This document shows positions 10,141 to 48,890 of a stretch of 64,000 nucleotides of DNA, one piece after another. Source of the stretch: Minisyncoccota bacterium (GTDB lineage Bacteria > Patescibacteriota > Minisyncoccia > Phycocordibacterales > UBA9973); assembly GCA_031413715.1 (NCBI GenBank), contig JANOFO010000003.1, positions 75,047 to 139,046 of the forward strand, in the 5' to 3' direction. The notes under the pieces were generated by a model. It did not search any database and was not told the origin of the DNA. It saw only the letters and a list, made by a program, of their open reading frames with translations. Position numbers and translations under genes: made by a program. Position 1 is the stretch's first letter. Each line of letters opens with the position of its first letter.

Positions 10141-10261
10141 GCTGCCGACCAGGGAATTTCGATCCTTACAGGATCAGTATACCTTTTCCATTCACAAGTT
10201 CATATGGAAAAGGTTTTCGAATCCCTGACGCAAGACATATTGATGTCTTGCTATCGGCAGC
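10141..10261. ncRNA. Structured element, copy 1. An outer stem gctgccga/tcggcagc encloses three hairpins. The flank duplicates 15 nt of the tRNA-Gln 3' end.
   Basis: Hairpins gatcc-ttaca-ggatc, accttttccat-N12-atggaaaaggt and caagacat-attg-atgtcttg. About 85% identical to 40766-40884, with compensatory changes in the outer stem and the last hairpin. Confidence 0.5.
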
Positions 10262-10278
10262 TTTTGGCGAACAAAAGC
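10260..10278 (-). terminator. Hairpin immediately 3' of tRNA-Gln
   Basis: gcttttg-gcgaa-caaaagc followed by ttttgc. Confidence 0.4.
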
Positions 10279-10284
10279 TTTTGC

Positions 10285-10353
10285 TGCCGACCAGGGATTC
10301 GAACCCCAATACCATCCTCCAGAGGGATGTGTCCTACCATTAGACGAGTCGGC
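10285..10353 (-). tRNA. tRNA-Gln (anticodon CTG)
   Basis: Minus-strand sequence GCCGACTCG...CATCC-CTCTGGA-GGATG...TTCGAAT...GGTCGGCA with a TTCGAAT T-loop. The D- and T-stems are slightly non-canonical by hand fold. Confidence 0.65.
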
Positions 10354-10441
10354 AATAACTCAAACATAGTACCATAAAAATAAAGAAAACCAACCGAATC
10401 AGGGTTTGAAAAGGAGCCATGATTGATGTACAATCAGGTCT

Positions 10442-15577: not shown

Positions 15578-15643
15578 GCCGAGAGTGGGAATCGGACCCA
15601 CGTTCCTGCTTTACGAAAGCAGTGTCCCGCCTGCCTACGCTTG
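15578..15643 (-). pseudogene. tRNA-like 3' portion (anticodon arm CTGCT-TTCGTAA-AGCAG, T-arm GTGGG-TCCGATT-CCCAC, acceptor 3' strand) with no intact 5' half
   Basis: Hand fold. No acceptor 5' strand or D-arm precedes it. Its acceptor 3' strand TCTCGGC pairs 6/7 with the GCCGATA fragment at 15717-15757. Confidence 0.35.
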
Positions 15644-15716
15644 AGCCCACGAGGAGAATTGCACTCCTAACCTTCGATTTACGATACCGATGCTCTACTA
15701 ATTGAGCTACATGGGC
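15644..15716 (-). tRNA. tRNA-Thr (anticodon CGT)
   Basis: GCCCATG-TA-GCTC..GAGC-A-TCGGT-ATCGTAA-ATCGA-AGGTT-AGGAG-TGCAATT-CTCCT-CGTGGGC-T. Full cloverleaf with U33 and A37. Confidence 0.75.
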
Positions 15717-15757: not shown

Positions 15758-15767
15758 ATATTTCGGG

Positions 15768-15840
15768 AGCCGTTAAACAGACTTGCACTGTTGACCTCGT
15801 TCTTACCAAGAACGTGCTCTACTGCCTGAGCTATAACGGC
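15768..15840 (-). tRNA. tRNA-Thr (anticodon GGT)
   Basis: GCCGTTA-TA-GCTC-AGGCAGT-AGAGC-A-CGTTC-TTGGTAA-GAACG-AGGTC-AACAG-TGCAAGT-CTGTT-TAACGGC-T. Confidence 0.8.
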
Positions 15841-16244: not shown

Positions 16245-16318
16245 GCAGTCGTAGCTCAACTGGTTAGAGCACCCGCCTGTCACGTGGGAGGTTGAGGGTT
16301 CAAGTCCCTTCGACTGCG
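16245..16318 (+). tRNA. tRNA-Asp (anticodon GTC)
   Basis: GCAGTCG-TA-GCTC-AACTGGTT-AGAGC-A-CCCGC-CTGTCAC-GTGGG-AGGTT-GAGGG-TTCAAGT-CCCTT-CGACTGC-G. Confidence 0.85.
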
Positions 16319-16323
16319 CAAGT

Positions 16324-16351: not shown

Positions 16352-16474
16352 CGCGCAGGAGAAGCAAGCAAACTGCTTTGCTTGCGGAGGGACTTGAAAG
16401 GCTTTTCGTTCTCCGATTATTCGGAGCGAAAAGCACCCGCGCCGGTAAGGCGAAAGACTCCCTTCGACTGCGCA
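16352..16474. ncRNA. Structured element linked to the tRNA-Asp 3' end. It ends with a direct 15-nt duplicate of the tRNA 3' end (16460-16474).
   Basis: Starts with cgcgcag (inverse of ctgcgcg), then hairpins gcaagcaaa-ctgc-tttgcttgc, the nested gcttttcg/ctccga-ttat-tcggag/cgaaaagc, and cgcc-ggtaa-ggcg, and ends with cccttcgactgcgca. Confidence 0.45.
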
Positions 16475-16547
16475 AAGGAAAACCACCCATTCTATATGGG
16501 TAGTTTTCTGTATACTGATTCGACAGACAACTGCTATAATAAAATCA

Positions 16548-40236: not shown

Positions 40237-40740
40237 TTAAATAGAACTATCTTTTAATAACTGTAAGAGCTCTTTATGAGTTTTTTTATTTCCTGCAATA
40301 AAAATTCTATCTCCTTCAGAAAATTCAACATCTCCTTTTCCGTTCGTAAACATACCACCTGCTTCTCTTATTAAAAGACTCCCTGCAAACTCAGGAAATG
40401 AATCTTTGGTTAATGATATAACTCCATCTAATCTTCCACATGCTACAGAGCAATAATTAAAAGAATAAGAATAAAAACTACGTTCCATTTTATATGAAGA
40501 TAATTTTTCAAGTAAATTATCAACTAATTCTCTATCAGGGTAATGCATAACACCTCGAAAAATTATGTCGCTAATGATATTAATGTCAGAAATTTTCTGT
40601 CCTTCTTTGTTTGAGTCTTCTCTAACTACTTTAGTGCCGGCAGAAGTAGCTTGATGTTTCCCTTCGACAAGTTTATTAAAAATTGCTTCTGCTAATTGAC
40701 TTCTGCCATTGTTAGCTTTGCAGACGAATAATATTTTCAT
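40237..40740 (-). CDS. Chimeric ORF: an ArsC/LMW-PTP-like N-terminus (C-x5-R loop) fused to the C-terminal half of an inositol-monophosphatase-like protein
   Basis: N-terminal ILFVCKANNGRSQLAEAI. C-terminal ...CGRLDGVISLT..FAGSLLIREAGGMFTNGKG, an IMPase C-terminal signature. Confidence 0.45.
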   Translation of the reverse strand: MKILFVCKANNGRSQLAEAIFNKLVEGKHQATSAGTKVVREDSNKEGQKISDINIISDIIFRGVMHYPDRELVDNLLEKLSSYKMERSFYSYSFNYCSVACGRLDGVISLTKDSFPEFAGSLLIREAGGMFTNGKGDVEFSEGDRIFIAGNKKTHKELLQLLKDSSI

Positions 40741-40765: not shown

Positions 40766-40884
40766 GCGGAGACGAAGAAAATTTCGATCCTTACAGGATC
40801 AGTATACCTTTCCCATTCATTCTTCATATGGAAAAGGTTTTCGAATCTCTCACGCAAGCAAAAAACGTTGCTTGGTCGTCTCCG
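40766..40884. ncRNA. Structured element, copy 2. It has the same core as 10141-10261 with an outer stem cggagacga/tcgtctccg.
   Basis: Conserved core AATTTCGATCCTTACAGGATCAGTATACCTTT(T/C)CCATTCA...TTCATATGGAAAAGGTTTTCGAATC(C/T)CT(G/C)ACGCAAG. The last hairpin is caagcaa-aaaacg-ttgcttg. Confidence 0.5.
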
Positions 40885-41237
40885 CTTTCGCGGGGCTCAA
40901 GCGGAGAGCGTCGAGTTGGAACTTTTTATAGGCAAGACCTGTAAGGTTATTTTAGCACTTTTTGAGAATCTTAATCGACGTATCTCGTGCGCTTCAAAAA
41001 ATGACATGGTATTGAGTATAAAAGGTGCACTCATCTGTCACTTTTTGGCTATATTTTAGTGCCATATTGTGCTATAATAATGACATGAAAATAGGTGGAA
41101 AAACACAAACCAATAGCCGAACAACCTTCTCTATAAAGGCTCTAAACAAGGATCAAGTCAAGTCTCGATCCTTCGATACCATGCGCACATCCTTTGCCAT
41201 CGAGGGCATTCGTTTTAGCGAGTCGCAATTCGCAGCC

Positions 41238-46900: not shown

Positions 46901-46987
46901 GCGGAGACGGTGGGATTTGAACCCACGAGGGCGATTAAACCCTGCCTCCTTAGCAAGGAGGTACGTTAGACCACTCCGACACGTCTC
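46901..46987 (-). tRNA. tRNA-Ser (anticodon GCT), class II with a long variable arm
   Basis: GGAGACG...CCTCC-TTGCTAA-GGAGG-(long variable arm)-GTGGG-TTCAAAT-CCCAC-CGTCTCC-G. Confidence 0.8.
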
Positions 46988-47061
46988 CGTATAACGCTTT
47001 TATACCTTATCATATTTAGCATTTTTACTCAAAAAGTAATTATGCTAGTATGAGAGAATTA

Positions 47062-47196: not shown

Positions 47197-47282
47197 GGAA
47201 GCGTGGATGAGTGGTTTAAATCAACGGTTTACTAAACCGTCGTCCCTTTAAAGGACCGTGAGTTCGAATCTCACCGCTTCCG
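47197..47282 (+). tRNA. Class II tRNA (long variable arm). The hand fold gives anticodon loop TTACTAA, so the anticodon reads ACT (Ser) with an unusual A34.
   Basis: Acceptor GGAAGCG/CGCTTCC, a 3-bp D-stem, anticodon stem ACGGT/ACCGT, T-arm GTGAG-TTCGAAT-CTCAC. Isotype uncertain. Confidence 0.6.
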
Positions 47283-48890
47283 CATAGTAATACTTTCAGG
47301 CATGAAAGAAACATTCTGCCTTGATACATAAGTACCTTTATCGGTTCGAACTTGAATCAATTCTTGTTCGGCCTTTTTTAGATTCTCGAATATGAATTTG
47401 AACGGCATATGCAAATCTATAACGAGTTTCTGGTCTTTTATGAGGAGGTTCGAACCAAGACATGAAAAAATGGCTCGCTTAGTTTGCAAGTCTCCCTTTT
47501 GGAACCAGATTTGCGCATAGCGTGCGAAATTAAATGTTCTCTCGCTTAGTTCCATCCATTGTTCCTTAGCCTTGCCGTAGGCCTCTAATTCGGTCTCTAG
47601 GGCGTGTTTCTCCTTCACTAGGCCATTCTTGAGCATCTTGTAATCCTCATTGGTTATAAGCTCATTTTGGGTATTCTCTGCGGAAGTGTATTTAAGCAAC
47701 AAGCTATTTAACTGCGTATCAATTTCAGAAAGCCGCTTCTGCTTGTTAAGCAAAACTTGATGGTATGATTGAGCCTCATTTGAGCGTACTTCATGCAAAT
47801 ACTTTATTGCCCATTGCTGAAATCTTTCAGAAATAGTTATTCCGGAAATCAAAGTGTCAATTTGAGCGGTTAAAGATTCTAGTCTGACACTTCTCTCCGC
47901 ACAGTTCTTGTCTATTCTTTTCGTGCAGTGATAAAAAATATAAGTGTGGGTGTTACCATTCTTTTGTCTTTTTGTTTTTATCTCCGCAGTTATCATTGCT
48001 CCGCAACTTCCACACTTCATTAATCCTGTGAATGCGAAGCTGTGTTTCTTAGGTTTCGGTTTTCCTTTCTTACCGAGAATCACTTGAGCGCGTTCATACT
48101 CCTCATCACTTATCATTGCTTCATGATTACCTTTTTTATTTTCTTCGTTATCAGAATATCCTGCATAAAATCTATTAGAGAATAGCCTGTATACCCCTGC
48201 CTTCCCTAAAGACTTACCTTTATATTTTTTTGTCGTGCGAGTTCTTAAATGAAATTCATTATTGGCAATATCGAGAATTTGCATCACCGTATAATTTCCG
48301 GACAAGAGCATTTGCCACATCCGCTTTACAATATCGAAACGCTCAGGGTCATTAACTATGATGTTGTCTCCTTTATCGCGGATAATAGTGTTTAAGTATC
48401 CCAGCGGCGCCCGACCAGGACGCCAGCCCATCTCTATCTTTGTTTTTAATCCTCGTTTTACATTTACACTCAAGTCTCGAATGTATTGATTTGCAATACC
48501 GAATTCCAGATATGAAAGCAAAGAATTGTCTTCTGGATAATAATCTTTCTCTGGAGTTTTAATGTGCTTTATTTCACCTCGTTGAAGCATGCCTATAATT
48601 ATTCCAGCCTCATCTGGGTTTCGAGCTAGCCTATCTAACTTCCAACATAAAATACCACTGGCTTCACCTTTCTTTATTCGACTAATCATTTCATTAAAGA
48701 CCGGACGATTAGCTGGAGTCTTTGCAGATTTCGATTCTCTTAATTTGCTTACAATCTTAAAAGAAAGTCGCGTTCCTAAATCTTCAAGTGCTTTCTCTTG
48801 GGAATCAAGACTGAGAATCTGCCGGTCATCATCTTCTGTGGACTTTCGGCAGTAAATAAAATAATTATTTTGGTTATGTTTTGTGTTCAT
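47271..48890 (-). CDS. Large serine recombinase (resolvase/invertase N-terminal domain, recombinase domain, zinc ribbon, coiled-coil)
   Basis: YCRKSTEDDDRQ...SLDSQ catalytic Ser region, and CGSCGAMI...CTKRIDKNC zinc ribbon. The 3' end overlaps the tRNA 3' end by 12 nt. Confidence 0.85.
   Translation of the reverse strand: MNTKHNQNNYFIYCRKSTEDDDRQILSLDSQEKALEDLGTRLSFKIVSKLRESKSAKTPANRPVFNEMISRIKKGEASGILCWKLDRLARNPDEAGIIIGMLQRGEIKHIKTPEKDYYPEDNSLLSYLEFGIANQYIRDLSVNVKRGLKTKIEMGWRPGRAPLGYLNTIIRDKGDNIIVNDPERFDIVKRMWQMLLSGNYTVMQILDIANNEFHLRTRTTKKYKGKSLGKAGVYRLFSNRFYAGYSDNEENKKGNHEAMISDEEYERAQVILGKKGKPKPKKHSFAFTGLMKCGSCGAMITAEIKTKRQKNGNTHTYIFYHCTKRIDKNCAERSVRLESLTAQIDTLISGITISERFQQWAIKYLHEVRSNEAQSYHQVLLNKQKRLSEIDTQLNSLLLKYTSAENTQNELITNEDYKMLKNGLVKEKHALETELEAYGKAKEQWMELSERTFNFARYAQIWFQKGDLQTKRAIFSCLGSNLLIKDQKLVIDLHMPFKFIFENLKKAEQELIQVRTDKGTYVSRQNVSFMPESITMRKR

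Follow-up and report, generated by a model that had tools for sequence, protein, structure and literature searches.

The window, by which we mean the whole 64 kb stretch analysed, carries at 40766-40885 a second copy of a structured element that also lies at 10141-10261, as the original prediction had stated; the two align over ~125 nt. Two blocks, TTTCGATCCTTACAGGATCAGTATACC and ATATGGAAAAGGTTTTCGAATC, are 100% identical between the copies and occur nowhere else (shuffles, 0 expected). Compared with shuffles, the two copies form a far more stable fold, in which an outer stem encloses three hairpins (folding z-scores of -5.6 and -6.7 for copy 2, and of -9.0 and -8.5 for copy 1, on the plus and minus strand, respectively). 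The features of these copies and of related sequences in the window are:

40766-40775, minus strand: distal arm C of copy 2, reading TCGTCTCCGC on the minus (tRNA-sense) strand and pairing with 40876-40885
40776-40785, minus strand: T-stem/T-loop part of arm C, decayed (minus strand gaaattttct)
40786-40800, minus strand: hairpin P2 of copy 2 (GATCC-TGTAA-GGATC on the minus strand)
40801-40805, minus strand: conserved junction of copy 2 (ATACT on the minus strand), invariant columns
40806-40838, minus strand: hairpin P3 of copy 2, 11 bp
40839-40852, minus strand: B-T segment of copy 2, an inverted tRNA T loop and T-stem 3' strand; the plus strand reads TTTCGAATCTCTCA
40855-40874, minus strand: hairpin P4 of copy 2 (caagcaa/ttgcttg), splitting the inverted tRNA copy at the acceptor/T-stem boundary
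40876-40885, minus strand: B-acc of copy 2, an inverted acceptor 3' strand and the second half of the outer stem
40886-40900, minus strand: spacer of copy 2, at the terminator-hairpin position of canonical units
40901-40922, minus strand: tRNA-3'-end-like relic A' (GTTCCAACTCGACGCTCTCCGC on the minus strand), at the canonical site of the partner tRNA's 3' end
46901-46988, minus strand: tRNA-Ser(GCT), whose last 10 nt equal the copy 2 arm; not the partner tRNA
10141-10282, minus strand: copy 1, a canonical unit after tRNA-Gln(CTG) (10283-10354), with arm C 10141-10155, P2 10161-10175, P3 10181-10214, B-T 10215-10227, P4 10230-10251, B-acc 10254-10261 and spacer hairpin 10260-10278
16353-16475, plus strand: copy 3, a divergent unit behind the terminator of tRNA-Asp (16245-16319), with B-acc 16353-16358, P4 16364-16385, P3 16401-16434, a P2 variant (CGCC-GGTAA-GGCG) 16440-16452 and arm C 16459-16475

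The third copy, behind tRNA-Asp at 16353-16475, had been missed by the original prediction; it scores 37.5 bits (E about 1e-7) against covariance model R1.

With an E-value threshold of 1e-4, R1 identifies 26 units in the window and 17 public loci, two of the latter labelled Saccharibacteria and 'uncultured bacterium'; three of the units are those of the window. Exact-pattern scans recovered the core from 2 genome and 19 metagenome contigs. The units are non-coding, about 120-150 nt long, and have a canonical order. On the tRNA strand it begins with the tRNA, whose 3' end is named A, and continues with a terminator-type hairpin, B, a junction, P3, a junction, P2, C and the flank. B is an exact inverted copy of the last ~20-25 nt of the tRNA (T loop to discriminator plus CA), split at the acceptor/T-stem boundary by P4, whose position is conserved. 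The junction from B to P3 is AUUCGAAAA, the one from P3 to P2 is UAUACU. C is a direct repeat of the same tRNA segment as B, after which the original downstream flank resumes. The P2 loop, C-UGUAA-G, is invariant across the family, and the four outer P2 pairs covary. The inverted copy derives from the tRNA 3' strand and not from the 5' strand: the T stem of tRNA-Gln is tgggg/ccctg and the element has caggg, and the T-loop variant ttcaaat appears in B as atttgaa. Throughout the family, the outer stem invariably reproduces the 3' end of whichever tRNA precedes the unit. In silico, B pairs either with C (as the outer stem) or with A, re-creating the duplex of the T-loop-to-3'-end region of the tRNA gene; the predicted B:C or A:B pairing amounts to a mimic of the tRNA 'top half'. 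At the tRNA-Ser(ACT) of locus L033, a different core occupies the same A-hairpin-B-core-C frame. Decayed copies (the copy 2 arms, L009, L012) and tandem or abutting arrays (L005, L016, L020, L011, L006) also occur.

In copy 2, the outer stem comprises 9-10 bp and is formed by GCGGAGACGA (40766-40775) and TCGTCTCCGC (40876-40885); in arm C, TCGTCTCCGC corresponds to the tRNA-Ser acceptor 3' strand with discriminator G and a further C. The 9-mer GCGGAGACG occurs exactly three times on both strands of the 64 kb, namely in the two copy 2 arms and at the 3' terminus of tRNA-Ser(GCT) (46901-46909), against an expectation of 0.16, and 0 of 100 shuffles reach three. The match to the tRNA-Ser(GCT) acceptor end noted earlier is thus an identity, and since it is in register with the discriminator and the acceptor strand, the proviso that it might be a chance 9-mer falls away; the stem is tRNA-Ser-derived. 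The tRNA-Ser(GCT) gene itself, 6 kb from copy 2, is ruled out as the partner, because the identity stops after 10 nt at the acceptor/T-stem boundary, whereas canonical arms run for 15-23 nt through the T stem, and because the T-loop/T-stem part of the arm (TTCGAATCTCTCAC) resembles tRNA-Ser(ACT) (TTCGAATCTCAC) and not tRNA-Ser(GCT) (TTCAAATCCCAC). The B-T segment, TTTCGAATCTCTCA, compares with GTTCGAATCTCAC of tRNA-Ser(ACT). Pairing between 40776-40785 and the B-T segment has been lost in copy 2, while the corresponding stem, P1b, is intact in copy 1. The single C.A mismatch of P3 on the plus strand is a G.U pair on the minus strand. The spacer keeps just a 4-bp hairpin, CCGC-GAAA-GCGG, which overlaps B-acc.

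Neither ARAGORN nor Rfam calls a tRNA at 40766-40922 or at 10141-10282, even at E <= 10, in agreement with the claim that no tRNA, at least no live one, adjoins copy 2. What does adjoin it, at 40901-40922, had been taken for another inverted-like copy and is instead a tRNA-3'-end-like relic, with a local alignment score of 32 against tRNA-Ser (shuffles, 18.3 +/- 3.3). The relic recurs in L033 and L035 as conserved sequence downstream of the Fic gene, with a terminator behind it and no unit. We also considered a full decayed tRNA-Ser gene beside copy 2 and rejected it: the likeness convinces only over the 22 nt of the 3' end and is borderline in the longer alignment to tRNA-Ser(ACT), Rfam sees no tRNA, and in relatives the region is conserved Fic-downstream sequence. 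Copy 2 is best read as an older unit whose core is intact and whose arms have decayed in part; of its partner, a tRNA-Ser-type 3' end, nothing but the relic is left. Two histories had been offered for it. That the element once sat beside a tRNA-Ser locus is the better one, given the relic in canonical position and orientation, but that locus was not the tRNA-Ser(GCT) of 46901-46988. Movement together with part of a flank is not the general rule, because the arms follow the local tRNA allele in every genome examined; within the window, the near-identical cores of copies 1 and 2 carry Gln and Ser arms, respectively.

Recombination between tRNA-proximal sites had likewise been suggested as a source of the layout. 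Copies 1 and 2, the two that can be compared with relatives, both lie at synteny breakpoints; copy 2 adjoins a chimeric ORF there, and the tRNA-Gln locus is rearranged in several relatives. The situation of copy 2 and the rearranged tRNA-Gln locus speak for there being no element at all, that is, for a chance similarity or the scar of a local recombination or duplication between tRNA-proximal sequences. Yet the same core, order and orientation recur in 26 units on unrelated contigs, with compensatory changes, and the 9-mer statistics argue against chance. We regard this explanation as refuted, with next to no probability left to it: the architecture is fixed family-wide and is not a recombination accident.

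The association with tRNA genes extends to the family. Half of the non-redundant units bearing P2 (12 of 24) are located 90-270 nt past a tRNA 3' end, always in one relative orientation, and the tRNAs concerned are specific for Gln, Ser, Asp, His, Pro, Val, Arg and Ile. A direct or inverted repeat of the last 23 nt, at least 11 nt long and within 500 nt downstream, was found for 16 of the 31 tRNAs in the loci examined; the upstream control gave 2 of 31. Direct repeats measure 15-23 nt, or 46 nt including the terminator at the tRNA-Met of L006. Their left edge is fixed in the T loop, between GG[T/A]TC and GAA, with one exception at the anticodon arm (L020), and their right edge is variable. Judged by these edges, the repeats have the pattern of att identity blocks and not that of fixed-length target duplications.

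A left edge in the T loop (around nt 56-60) would also be produced by reverse transcription, if the arms were cDNA of the tRNA 3' end, made by tRNA priming or template switching and stopped in the T loop by m1A58, as for retroviral primer-binding sites or tRNA-derived SINEs, and the product then integrated beside the homologous tRNA gene. Such a route would account for the re-specification of the arms; reverse-transcriptase genes are present in related contigs, and arm C of copy 1 ends in CCA where the tRNA-Gln gene encodes CAA. The CCA test fails generally, however: L003 has the opposite arrangement, with CCA in the gene and CAA in the arm, and CAA, as encoded in the gene, is what most arms have. 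In the units compared, differences from the gene that would be a specific mark of CCA addition or base modification are largely absent from the arms. The repeats at the tRNA-Met of L006 and at L011 include trailer and terminator and are therefore not copies of mature tRNA, the inverted copy split by P4 is left unexplained, and no reverse-transcriptase gene is adjacent. We consider this route very improbable.

Related genomes differ in whether they carry the element. At the site of copy 1, L031 and L032 are empty: the hairpin CTTGAGCTAGCTCAAAG, located past arm C of copy 1 in the window, there comes directly after tRNA-Gln. The unit is also absent in L026, L029 and L037, and in L038 this tRNA is accompanied by another kind of unit, which lacks B. 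Copy 2 is missing after the conserved Fic-downstream region of L033 and L035. The homology of the flanks is short (17/19 nt), as the empty-site genomes are only about 77-80% identical at the protein level. Gain or loss between related genomes points to mobility, which bears out the original prediction in this respect; it could be, however, that the empty sites lost their unit when the direct repeats A and C recombined, and that no gain was involved.

Structure is conserved. Of the cells, 93.9% are paired, compared to 76.4% in shuffles and 37-52% in slid controls. Compensatory changes are seen in 17 of 21 pairs, a number reached by 0 of 500 shuffles, and in P3 they affect 11 of 11 modelled pairs across the 26 units. 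Such strong covariation fits a functional RNA equally well. In 20 of 24 units it is the tRNA-sense strand that folds better; composition-matched shuffles fully reproduce this asymmetry, and the folding-energy test was discarded as strand evidence. G.U pairs outnumber A.C pairs by 41:8 in favour of the tRNA-sense strand, in an alignment that was itself fitted to that strand, and we assign the units to it tentatively.

If the unit acts as RNA, it could be a functional tRNA-like non-coding RNA or a cis-acting processing element, read through from the tRNA on the same strand, folded into a tRNA top half in which the acceptor stem stacks on a T-stem analogue and which has a discriminator and the trailer of the tRNA, and recognised by tRNA-handling enzymes (RNase P, RNase Z, CCA-adding enzyme) in the manner of plant-mitochondrial t-elements or mascRNA. 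It could serve as a processing signal located between the tRNA and the downstream gene, or as a decoy for factors that bind acceptor ends, and it would be inherited vertically with its tRNA and frequently lost by A-C recombination. Along the tRNA strand, the modules succeed each other exactly as in a tRNA: the 5' strand of the acceptor, a stub hairpin in place of the D and anticodon arms, the 5' strand of the T stem, an enlarged loop, then the 3' strands of T stem and acceptor, and the discriminator. The covariation is of the RNA type, the excess of G.U falls on the tRNA-sense strand, and a U.G pair is conserved at the base of P2. The next downstream gene is on the same strand for all three window copies, and several units repeat the trailer and terminator of the tRNA behind arm C. 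On the other hand, a good intrinsic terminator with a U run stands between the tRNA and most units, and the space ahead of B cannot accommodate a promoter, so that expression on the tRNA strand should be low. The unit is dispensable, its site being empty in several relatives; decayed copies and tandem arrays are more typical of selfish DNA; the T loop cannot form; a generic processing signal does not need the exact sequence of the neighbouring tRNA; and an Rfam match is absent. Weighing both sides, we regard the RNA function as a serious but improbable explanation.

The reading that we prefer, with confidence and doubt in about equal measure, is a non-autonomous element whose integration takes place at tRNA 3' ends, probably by recombination of a folded single strand. 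We infer a site-specific recombination with the crossover in the nearly universal T-loop sequence, carried out by a recombinase that would be supplied in trans. The tRNA-sense strand, folded as a hairpin, would be the attachment site, as in CTXphi attP(+) and integron attC. C and the flank would then represent the host's original tRNA 3' end, and the unit would bring a replacement 3' end with its hairpin.

No ORF was found inside the unit, and all-against-all BLAST of the 188 ORFs within 4 kb of the units yielded no recurrent neighbour protein tied to the element; if integrative, it must consequently be non-autonomous. Neighbours with Pfam assignments are housekeeping proteins (aldo-keto reductase, a LOG-family protein [TIGR00730, 'lysine decarboxylase-like'], L11, NusG, SOD, RecG, TsaD). 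No recombinase is linked to the family. A scan of ~18 window ORFs identified just one, a large serine recombinase at 47271-48890. We considered it as the mobilising enzyme but found no support, since long direct repeats are not a product of its att logic.

An enzyme encoded elsewhere is also invoked if the unit is a programmable guide RNA or DNA, in which a hairpin scaffold carries three tRNA-matching guide segments for an RNA-guided recombinase or nuclease and the unit is a miniature derivative mobilised in trans; IS110 bridge RNA, IS1111 seekRNA, TnpB omega-RNA and the tRNA-homing crRNA of type V-K CRISPR-associated transposons offer analogies. The variable segments that alternate with the conserved scaffold do correspond to both strands of the neighbouring target, the arm 3' of P2 looks like a ~20-nt 3' guide and begins directly behind GG(A/T)TC, a mimic of the universal tRNA GGTTC, and near-identical cores carry different arms. 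The 'guides' are locked, though, in a perfect intramolecular stem, the segments (35-45 nt in total) and their layout are unlike known bridge and omega RNAs, no IS110, TnpB or IscB-like gene or recurrent neighbour family is found beside any unit, and Rfam again provides no match. A guide function thus appears quite unlikely.

The integrative element that we favour leaves one feature out: a simple integrase model does not explain the re-specification of the arms, as P4 and P3/P2 are interleaved with three tRNA-specific segments. One could imagine a new kind of mobile unit that re-specifies itself, a three-hairpin scaffold whose tRNA-matching segments would be templated by the adjoining tRNA or its gene through an RNA- or ssDNA-level mechanism. 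We think this unlikely, yet worth stating; target-templated re-specification, if true, would account for near-identical cores with Gln, Ser or Asp arms in one genome.

Searches for described relatives gave no counterpart. Rfam 15, in gathering and sensitive modes, returned only tRNAs and noise for the window and both copies; for copies 1 and 2, the noise stayed at or below 21 bits, far below gathering scores. A likeness to hammerhead ribozymes (CUGAU...GAAA) was rejected by eye, as G8 and A9 are lacking, and likenesses to the hairpin ribozyme and to an HUH/relaxase nick site (between ATCCTG and T) were rejected on comparison by eye with the variants, the defining nucleotides being absent or not conserved. 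Scans of viral contigs with two patterns and BLAST against phages and plasmids gave no match to the element, no circular or excised version of it came to light, and full-text literature searches, with the core sequence included, found no description of it. A small structured element after tRNA genes in contigs of the Patescibacteria/CPR type is thus apparently undescribed.

CPR/Patescibacteria genomes are small and have few recognisable mobile elements. A widespread miniature element that colonises tRNA 3' ends specifically would mark hot spots of genome rearrangement in them, in keeping with the breakpoints at copies 1 and 2, and would point to a recombinase or a tRNA-end-binding factor. The unit could be either a minimal tRNA-targeted integration module or a tRNA-top-half RNA family in organisms whose RNA biology is barely explored, and in its predicted fold it is a compact natural design, one strand of which imitates the acceptor/T-stem half of any tRNA. 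The covariance model now allows annotation of units that otherwise pass for unexplained inverted repeats or pseudo-tRNA fragments.

Several known systems share part of these properties. Like MITEs, REPINs and PATEs, the unit is small, ORF-less, intergenic, multi-copy, hairpin-forming and polymorphic between relatives. No parent insertion sequence was identified for it, and fixed-length target duplications are absent (direct repeats range from 15 to 46 nt). Unlike those of MITEs, the terminal inverted repeats differ completely among copies (Gln, Ser, Asp, His, others) and are copied from the adjacent tRNA.

With t-elements, mascRNA, the tRNA-like domain of tmRNA and viral tRNA-like structures, the unit has in common the coaxial mimic of acceptor and T stem with a discriminator, and the position beside genes on the same strand. 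In contrast to these mimics, it has a branched insert (P3 and P2) in place of the T loop, its stem sequence changes with, and equals, the neighbouring tRNA, and it is dispensable, multi-copy and undetected by ARAGORN and Rfam.

CTXphi attP(+) consists of two inverted dif-like sites that fold into a XerCD substrate, and attC sites carry R and L boxes (GTTRRRY). As in both, inverted target copies lie ~90 nt apart, one folded strand re-creates the duplex target (for the unit, in silico), structure is kept rather than stem sequence, side hairpins and bulges are present, and tandem arrays occur. The target of the unit is the tRNA 3' end, however, and not dif or attI, and its strand specificity is weakly supported. 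Direct reading of the sequences gave no GTTRRRY/RYYYAAC ends and no 11-6-11 dif-like arrangement around P2.

Islands and prophages in tRNA genes reportedly use tyrosine-integrase att sites with the crossover in the T loop or anticodon loop, and CIMEs are said to be cis-mobilisable, gene-less derivatives of streptococcal ICEs. As with tRNA-integrated islands, the unit lies 3' of an intact tRNA (of a relic only for copy 2), direct repeats cover the tRNA segment from the T loop (once the anticodon arm) to the 3' end or beyond, identity blocks vary in length, and both tandem accretion and presence or absence among relatives are seen. The unit differs from these islands in that it measures ~130 bp and has no integrase or other gene, in its third, inverted copy of the tRNA end, which is split by a conserved hairpin, and in that its three hairpins covary and near-identical cores use many different tRNAs.

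The segment at 40766-40912 had been predicted to be a second copy of the structured element at 10141-10284, and this is borne out. The two are alignable across about 125 nt, contain the blocks TTTCGATCCTTACAGGATCAGTATACC and ATATGGAAAAGGTTTTCGAATC, which are 100% identical between them and absent from the rest of the window, and each fold into an outer stem around three hairpins, with energies well under those of shuffles (z -5.6 to -9.0). A covariance model of the unit family, run with filters off, finds exactly three units in the window (111, 109.5 and 37.5 bits).

Units and associated features in the window
10141-10282 (-): copy 1, after tRNA-Gln(CTG)
40766-40885 (-): copy 2
40766-40775 with 40876-40885: outer stem of copy 2, GCGGAGACGA paired with TCGTCTCCGC
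16353-16475 (+): copy 3, divergent family member after tRNA-Asp (16245-16319), P2 hairpin variant CGCC-GGTAA-GGCG

The proposed match of the copy-2 outer stem to the acceptor end of tRNA-Ser(GCT) is also real, and its register is that of the discriminator plus acceptor 3' strand. Across the 64 kb there are three instances of the 9-mer GCGGAGACG, one in each copy-2 arm and one at the 3' terminus of the tRNA (46901-46909), versus 0.16 expected; no shuffle contained three, so the frequency is not that of chance. The copy-1 arm equals the 3' end of the adjoining tRNA-Gln over 15 nt.

A tRNA-derived stem is the rule of the unit family. Scanning one genome per species for the exact pattern located the core (the region of hairpins P3 and P2) in two assemblies, an uncultured-bacterium bin (L003) and a Saccharibacteria MAG (L005), and a metagenome scan added 19 further contigs. 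For the proteins encoded next to the window copies, the best homologues come from Patescibacteria/Parcubacteria assemblies. Printed side by side, the loci display a single architecture.

Order of parts in the unit, read on the tRNA strand
1: tRNA, its 3' end being A
2: terminator-type hairpin, often with an A run ahead and a T run behind
3: B-acc, complement of discriminator and acceptor 3' strand
4: hairpin P4
5: B-T, complement of T-stem 3' strand and T loop (...ATTCGAAAA)
6: hairpin P3
7: junction (U)AUACU
8: hairpin P2, GAUCC-UGUAA-GGAUC
9: C, direct tRNA repeat from T loop to discriminator plus 1-3 nt
10: downstream flank

Twelve of the 24 non-redundant P2-bearing units sit 90-270 nt past a tRNA 3' end, always in the same relative orientation, the tRNAs being Gln (three), Ser (two), Asp, His, Pro, Val, Arg and Ile. 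Among the 31 tRNAs of the loci, 16 have at least 11 nt of their last 23 nt repeated, directly or inverted, within 500 nt downstream, versus 2 in the upstream control. The same scan of tRNA-end repeats revealed further units with variant P2 hairpins, among them copy 3, and a unit with a different core in L033. The covariance model, built from 11 units, matched 26 at E <= 1e-4.

In the alignment of these 26 units, 93.9% of the cells of P1b (the T-stem part of the outer stem), P3 and P2 are paired, versus 76.4% with shuffled partners, and 17 of 21 pairs have compensatory double changes. None of 500 shuffles attained any of the observed pairing or compensation values, a smaller unit set gave the same picture, and sliding the partners by 1-3 columns lowered pairing to 37-52%. 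The four outer pairs of P2 covary (GAUC, GACC, GAAG, GCUC and others) around an invariant C-UGUAA-G. On the tRNA-sense strand the modules run acceptor 5' strand, stub hairpin, T-stem 5' strand, expanded loop, T-stem 3' strand, acceptor 3' strand, discriminator, a tRNA-like order from which the fold is predicted to be a mimic of the tRNA top half. Both covariation and module order speak for the chief rival explanation, a functional tRNA-like RNA or processing element, which we nevertheless regard as rather unlikely.

In sequence, B is the tRNA 3' strand copied in inverse orientation and does not copy the tRNA's own 5' strands. The T stem of tRNA-Gln is tgggg/ccctg, with two wobble pairs, and the element carries caggg; the tRNA-Asp T-loop variant ttcaaat appears in the element as atttgaa. 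Twenty of 24 units fold better as the tRNA-sense strand, a difference that composition-matched shuffles reproduce, which voids folding energy as a strand test. G.U and A.C cells number 41:8 (23:7 minus the conserved U.G at the P2 base), favouring the tRNA-sense strand in an alignment fitted to that strand.

The LOG-family protein, CTP synthase, FtsX gene order beside copy 1 is kept in relatives whose LOG-family protein is 77-81% identical to that of the window. In the related loci L031/L032, the hairpin CTTGAGCTAGCTCAAAG directly follows the same tRNA-Gln(CTG) in the same orientation. Its window counterpart CTTGAGCTAGCCCCAAG (17/19 identical) lies past arm C, and another hairpin stands behind the window tRNA-Gln; the window thus has an insertion of about 140 bp relative to that genome. 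This comparison of orthologous loci, suggested with the original prediction, finds the unit absent from the L031/L032 tRNA-Gln, and the copy-2 site present without a unit in two other contigs (L033 and L035). L026, L029 and L037 have tRNA-Gln in other contexts, also without a unit. At the orthologous tRNA-Gln of L038 there is a unit of a different subfamily, without B, whose 15-nt arm equals that contig's own diverged tRNA-Gln allele, so arms track the local allele. This unit (1153-1258) also lacks P4; it belongs with L003 and L024 to a subfamily of units that carries a 17-nt module, CCG(Y)GAGTAC(R)CTT(Y)TC, between arm C and P2, and part of this module is repeated in the P3 loop of L003.

Units are in tandem or abut in L005, L016, L020, L011 and L006 (Asp/Met), a repeated use of the same kind of site, and within such an array each following unit uses the distal arm of the one before it as its 'tRNA end'. 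Such arrays count against a tRNA-like RNA or processing element, as do the dispensability of the unit, its decayed copies and the terminator ahead of most units.

In copy 3 the 3' end of tRNA-Asp is directly repeated over 17 nt, and a bidirectional terminator separates the unit from that tRNA. ARAGORN calls two extra tRNA-Thr at 15578-15644 and 15766-15840 (-), one overlapping the tRNA at 15643-15716 and neither supported by the Rfam gathering score. Both lie in the tRNA cluster and may represent pseudo-tRNAs or false calls. A unit in L033 (4372-4569) has a wholly different core of about 110 nt in the frame A-hairpin-B-core-C, running from tRNA-Ser(ACT) through hairpin, inverted copy (19 nt, perfect) and core to a perfect 22-nt direct repeat. 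The framing by tRNA ends thus extends beyond the P2/P3 core family. A 'type B' variant (L007, L013, L018/L023, L020 and L011 3294-3384) has the usual P2 and P3, then GGTCTTGCG-hairpin-CTCAC replacing the T-loop copy. Several type B units have housekeeping genes on either side (rplK-nusG, sodA) and no visible tRNA, and the one in L013 is flanked by 22-nt direct repeats of a hairpin.

Copy 2 has an intact core and the second-best model score, while the T-stem parts of its arms are no longer paired. In place of the tRNA it has a relic of 22 nt, with one inserted C relative to the arms (CGCTCTCC vs CGTCTCC). L033, L035 and L036 share with the window a conserved stretch of some 300 nt downstream of a Fic gene. 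The end of that stretch in L033 and L035 is the tRNA-3'-end-like GGTTCTAACTCGAGAC..CCCGCA, after which come a terminator and no unit. The window homologue of that end (40922-40901, minus strand) is GTTCCAACTCGACGCTCTCCGC, followed by copy 2, where synteny stops. When the relic region is aligned with tRNA-Ser(ACT) over a longer stretch, the score is only borderline (32 vs 18.3 +/- 3.3, best shuffle also 32) and Rfam finds no tRNA there, so we claim a tRNA-3'-end-like relic and not a decayed whole tRNA gene. The copy-2 arms equal tRNA-Ser(GCT) for only 10 nt, and their T-loop/T-stem part TTCGAATCTCTCAC is nearer to tRNA-Ser(ACT) TTCGAATCTCAC; neither window gene is the partner. As an acceptor stem, GGAGACG is common among tRNA-Ser, and the L021 arm carries it too. 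Of the suggestion that the element once sat beside a tRNA-Ser locus, the former tRNA-end neighbour is supported by the relic, and the window's own tRNA-Ser genes drop out.

Besides its tRNA-3'-end-like terminus, the conserved non-coding region itself (window 40901-41237, minus strand; L033 3101-3450; L035 983-1300; three or four genomes) has a small hairpin, CCTTAC(A/T)GG, that recalls P2. The region may mark where a Fic island ends, or may represent an old, degenerate unit pointing the other way. The ORF immediately downstream of copy 2 (40237-40740, -), with a TATAAT box 9 nt ahead of its ATG, is a chimera of 46 N-terminal residues of a low-molecular-weight phosphatase (ArsC-like) and a C-terminal fragment of inositol monophosphatase, and marks a rearrangement at copy 2.

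A tRNA-Ser with anticodon ACT (A34), unusual in bacteria, lies at 47197-47283 (+) beside the normal tRNA-Ser(GCT), and is conserved in a related genome (L033 4284-4371). In the window, its 3' end is overlapped by that of a large serine recombinase gene (47271-48890, -; Resolvase, Recombinase and Zn-ribbon domains). The window has low GC (0.34-0.38) from about 42 to 56 kb, and this region with its recombinase is probably an integrated island. In L033 and L034 a recombinase of homologous type adjoins the Fic gene instead.

No ORF was found inside the unit and no protein family recurs beside units, whose neighbours are housekeeping genes; any enzyme would thus act in trans. As in tRNA-gene integrative elements, the repeat's left edge is fixed in the T loop, with the P2 3' strand GGATC|GAA mimicking GGTTC|GAA, the right edge varies (mostly discriminator plus CA, but through the terminator, for a repeat of 46 nt, at the L006 tRNA-Met), one side has an intact tRNA, and arrays are tandem. 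Because of the extra inverted copy B, one strand can fold into a duplex identical to the T-loop-to-3'-end segment of a tRNA gene, with B pairing either to A, over the hairpin, or to C, over the core, which is formally the single-strand folding trick of CTXphi attP(+) and attC sites. On these features we commit ourselves, at an even chance of being right, to a non-autonomous integrative element whose recombination would fall in the T-loop region and probably involve a folded single strand; recombination, strandedness and enzyme are what we infer. C and the flank would be the host's original tRNA 3' end, and the unit would bring a replacement 3' end and hairpin.

The main difficulty of the integrative model is the interleaving of conserved and tRNA-specific modules. 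Copies 1 and 2 have near-identical cores, yet Gln versus Ser arms, which needs arm re-specification, within-genome core homogenisation or a templated process. That this arm-programming reflects a new mechanism seems improbable to us. A guide-RNA-like route is a minor alternative, as is reverse transcription, for which the CCA mark that cDNA copies of mature tRNAs should carry is not general.

Rfam 15, sensitive mode included, has no family matching the unit, phage, plasmid and viral collections gave no match to it, and full-text literature searches, with the core sequence among the queries, found no description. We rate the unit as a miniature tRNA-site integrative element or a tRNA mimic. It agrees with tRNA-integrating islands in location and repeats, with attC and CTXphi sites in the logic of its folding, with MITEs in its size and lack of genes, and with tRNA-like processing elements in shape, while differing from each in at least one defining feature.
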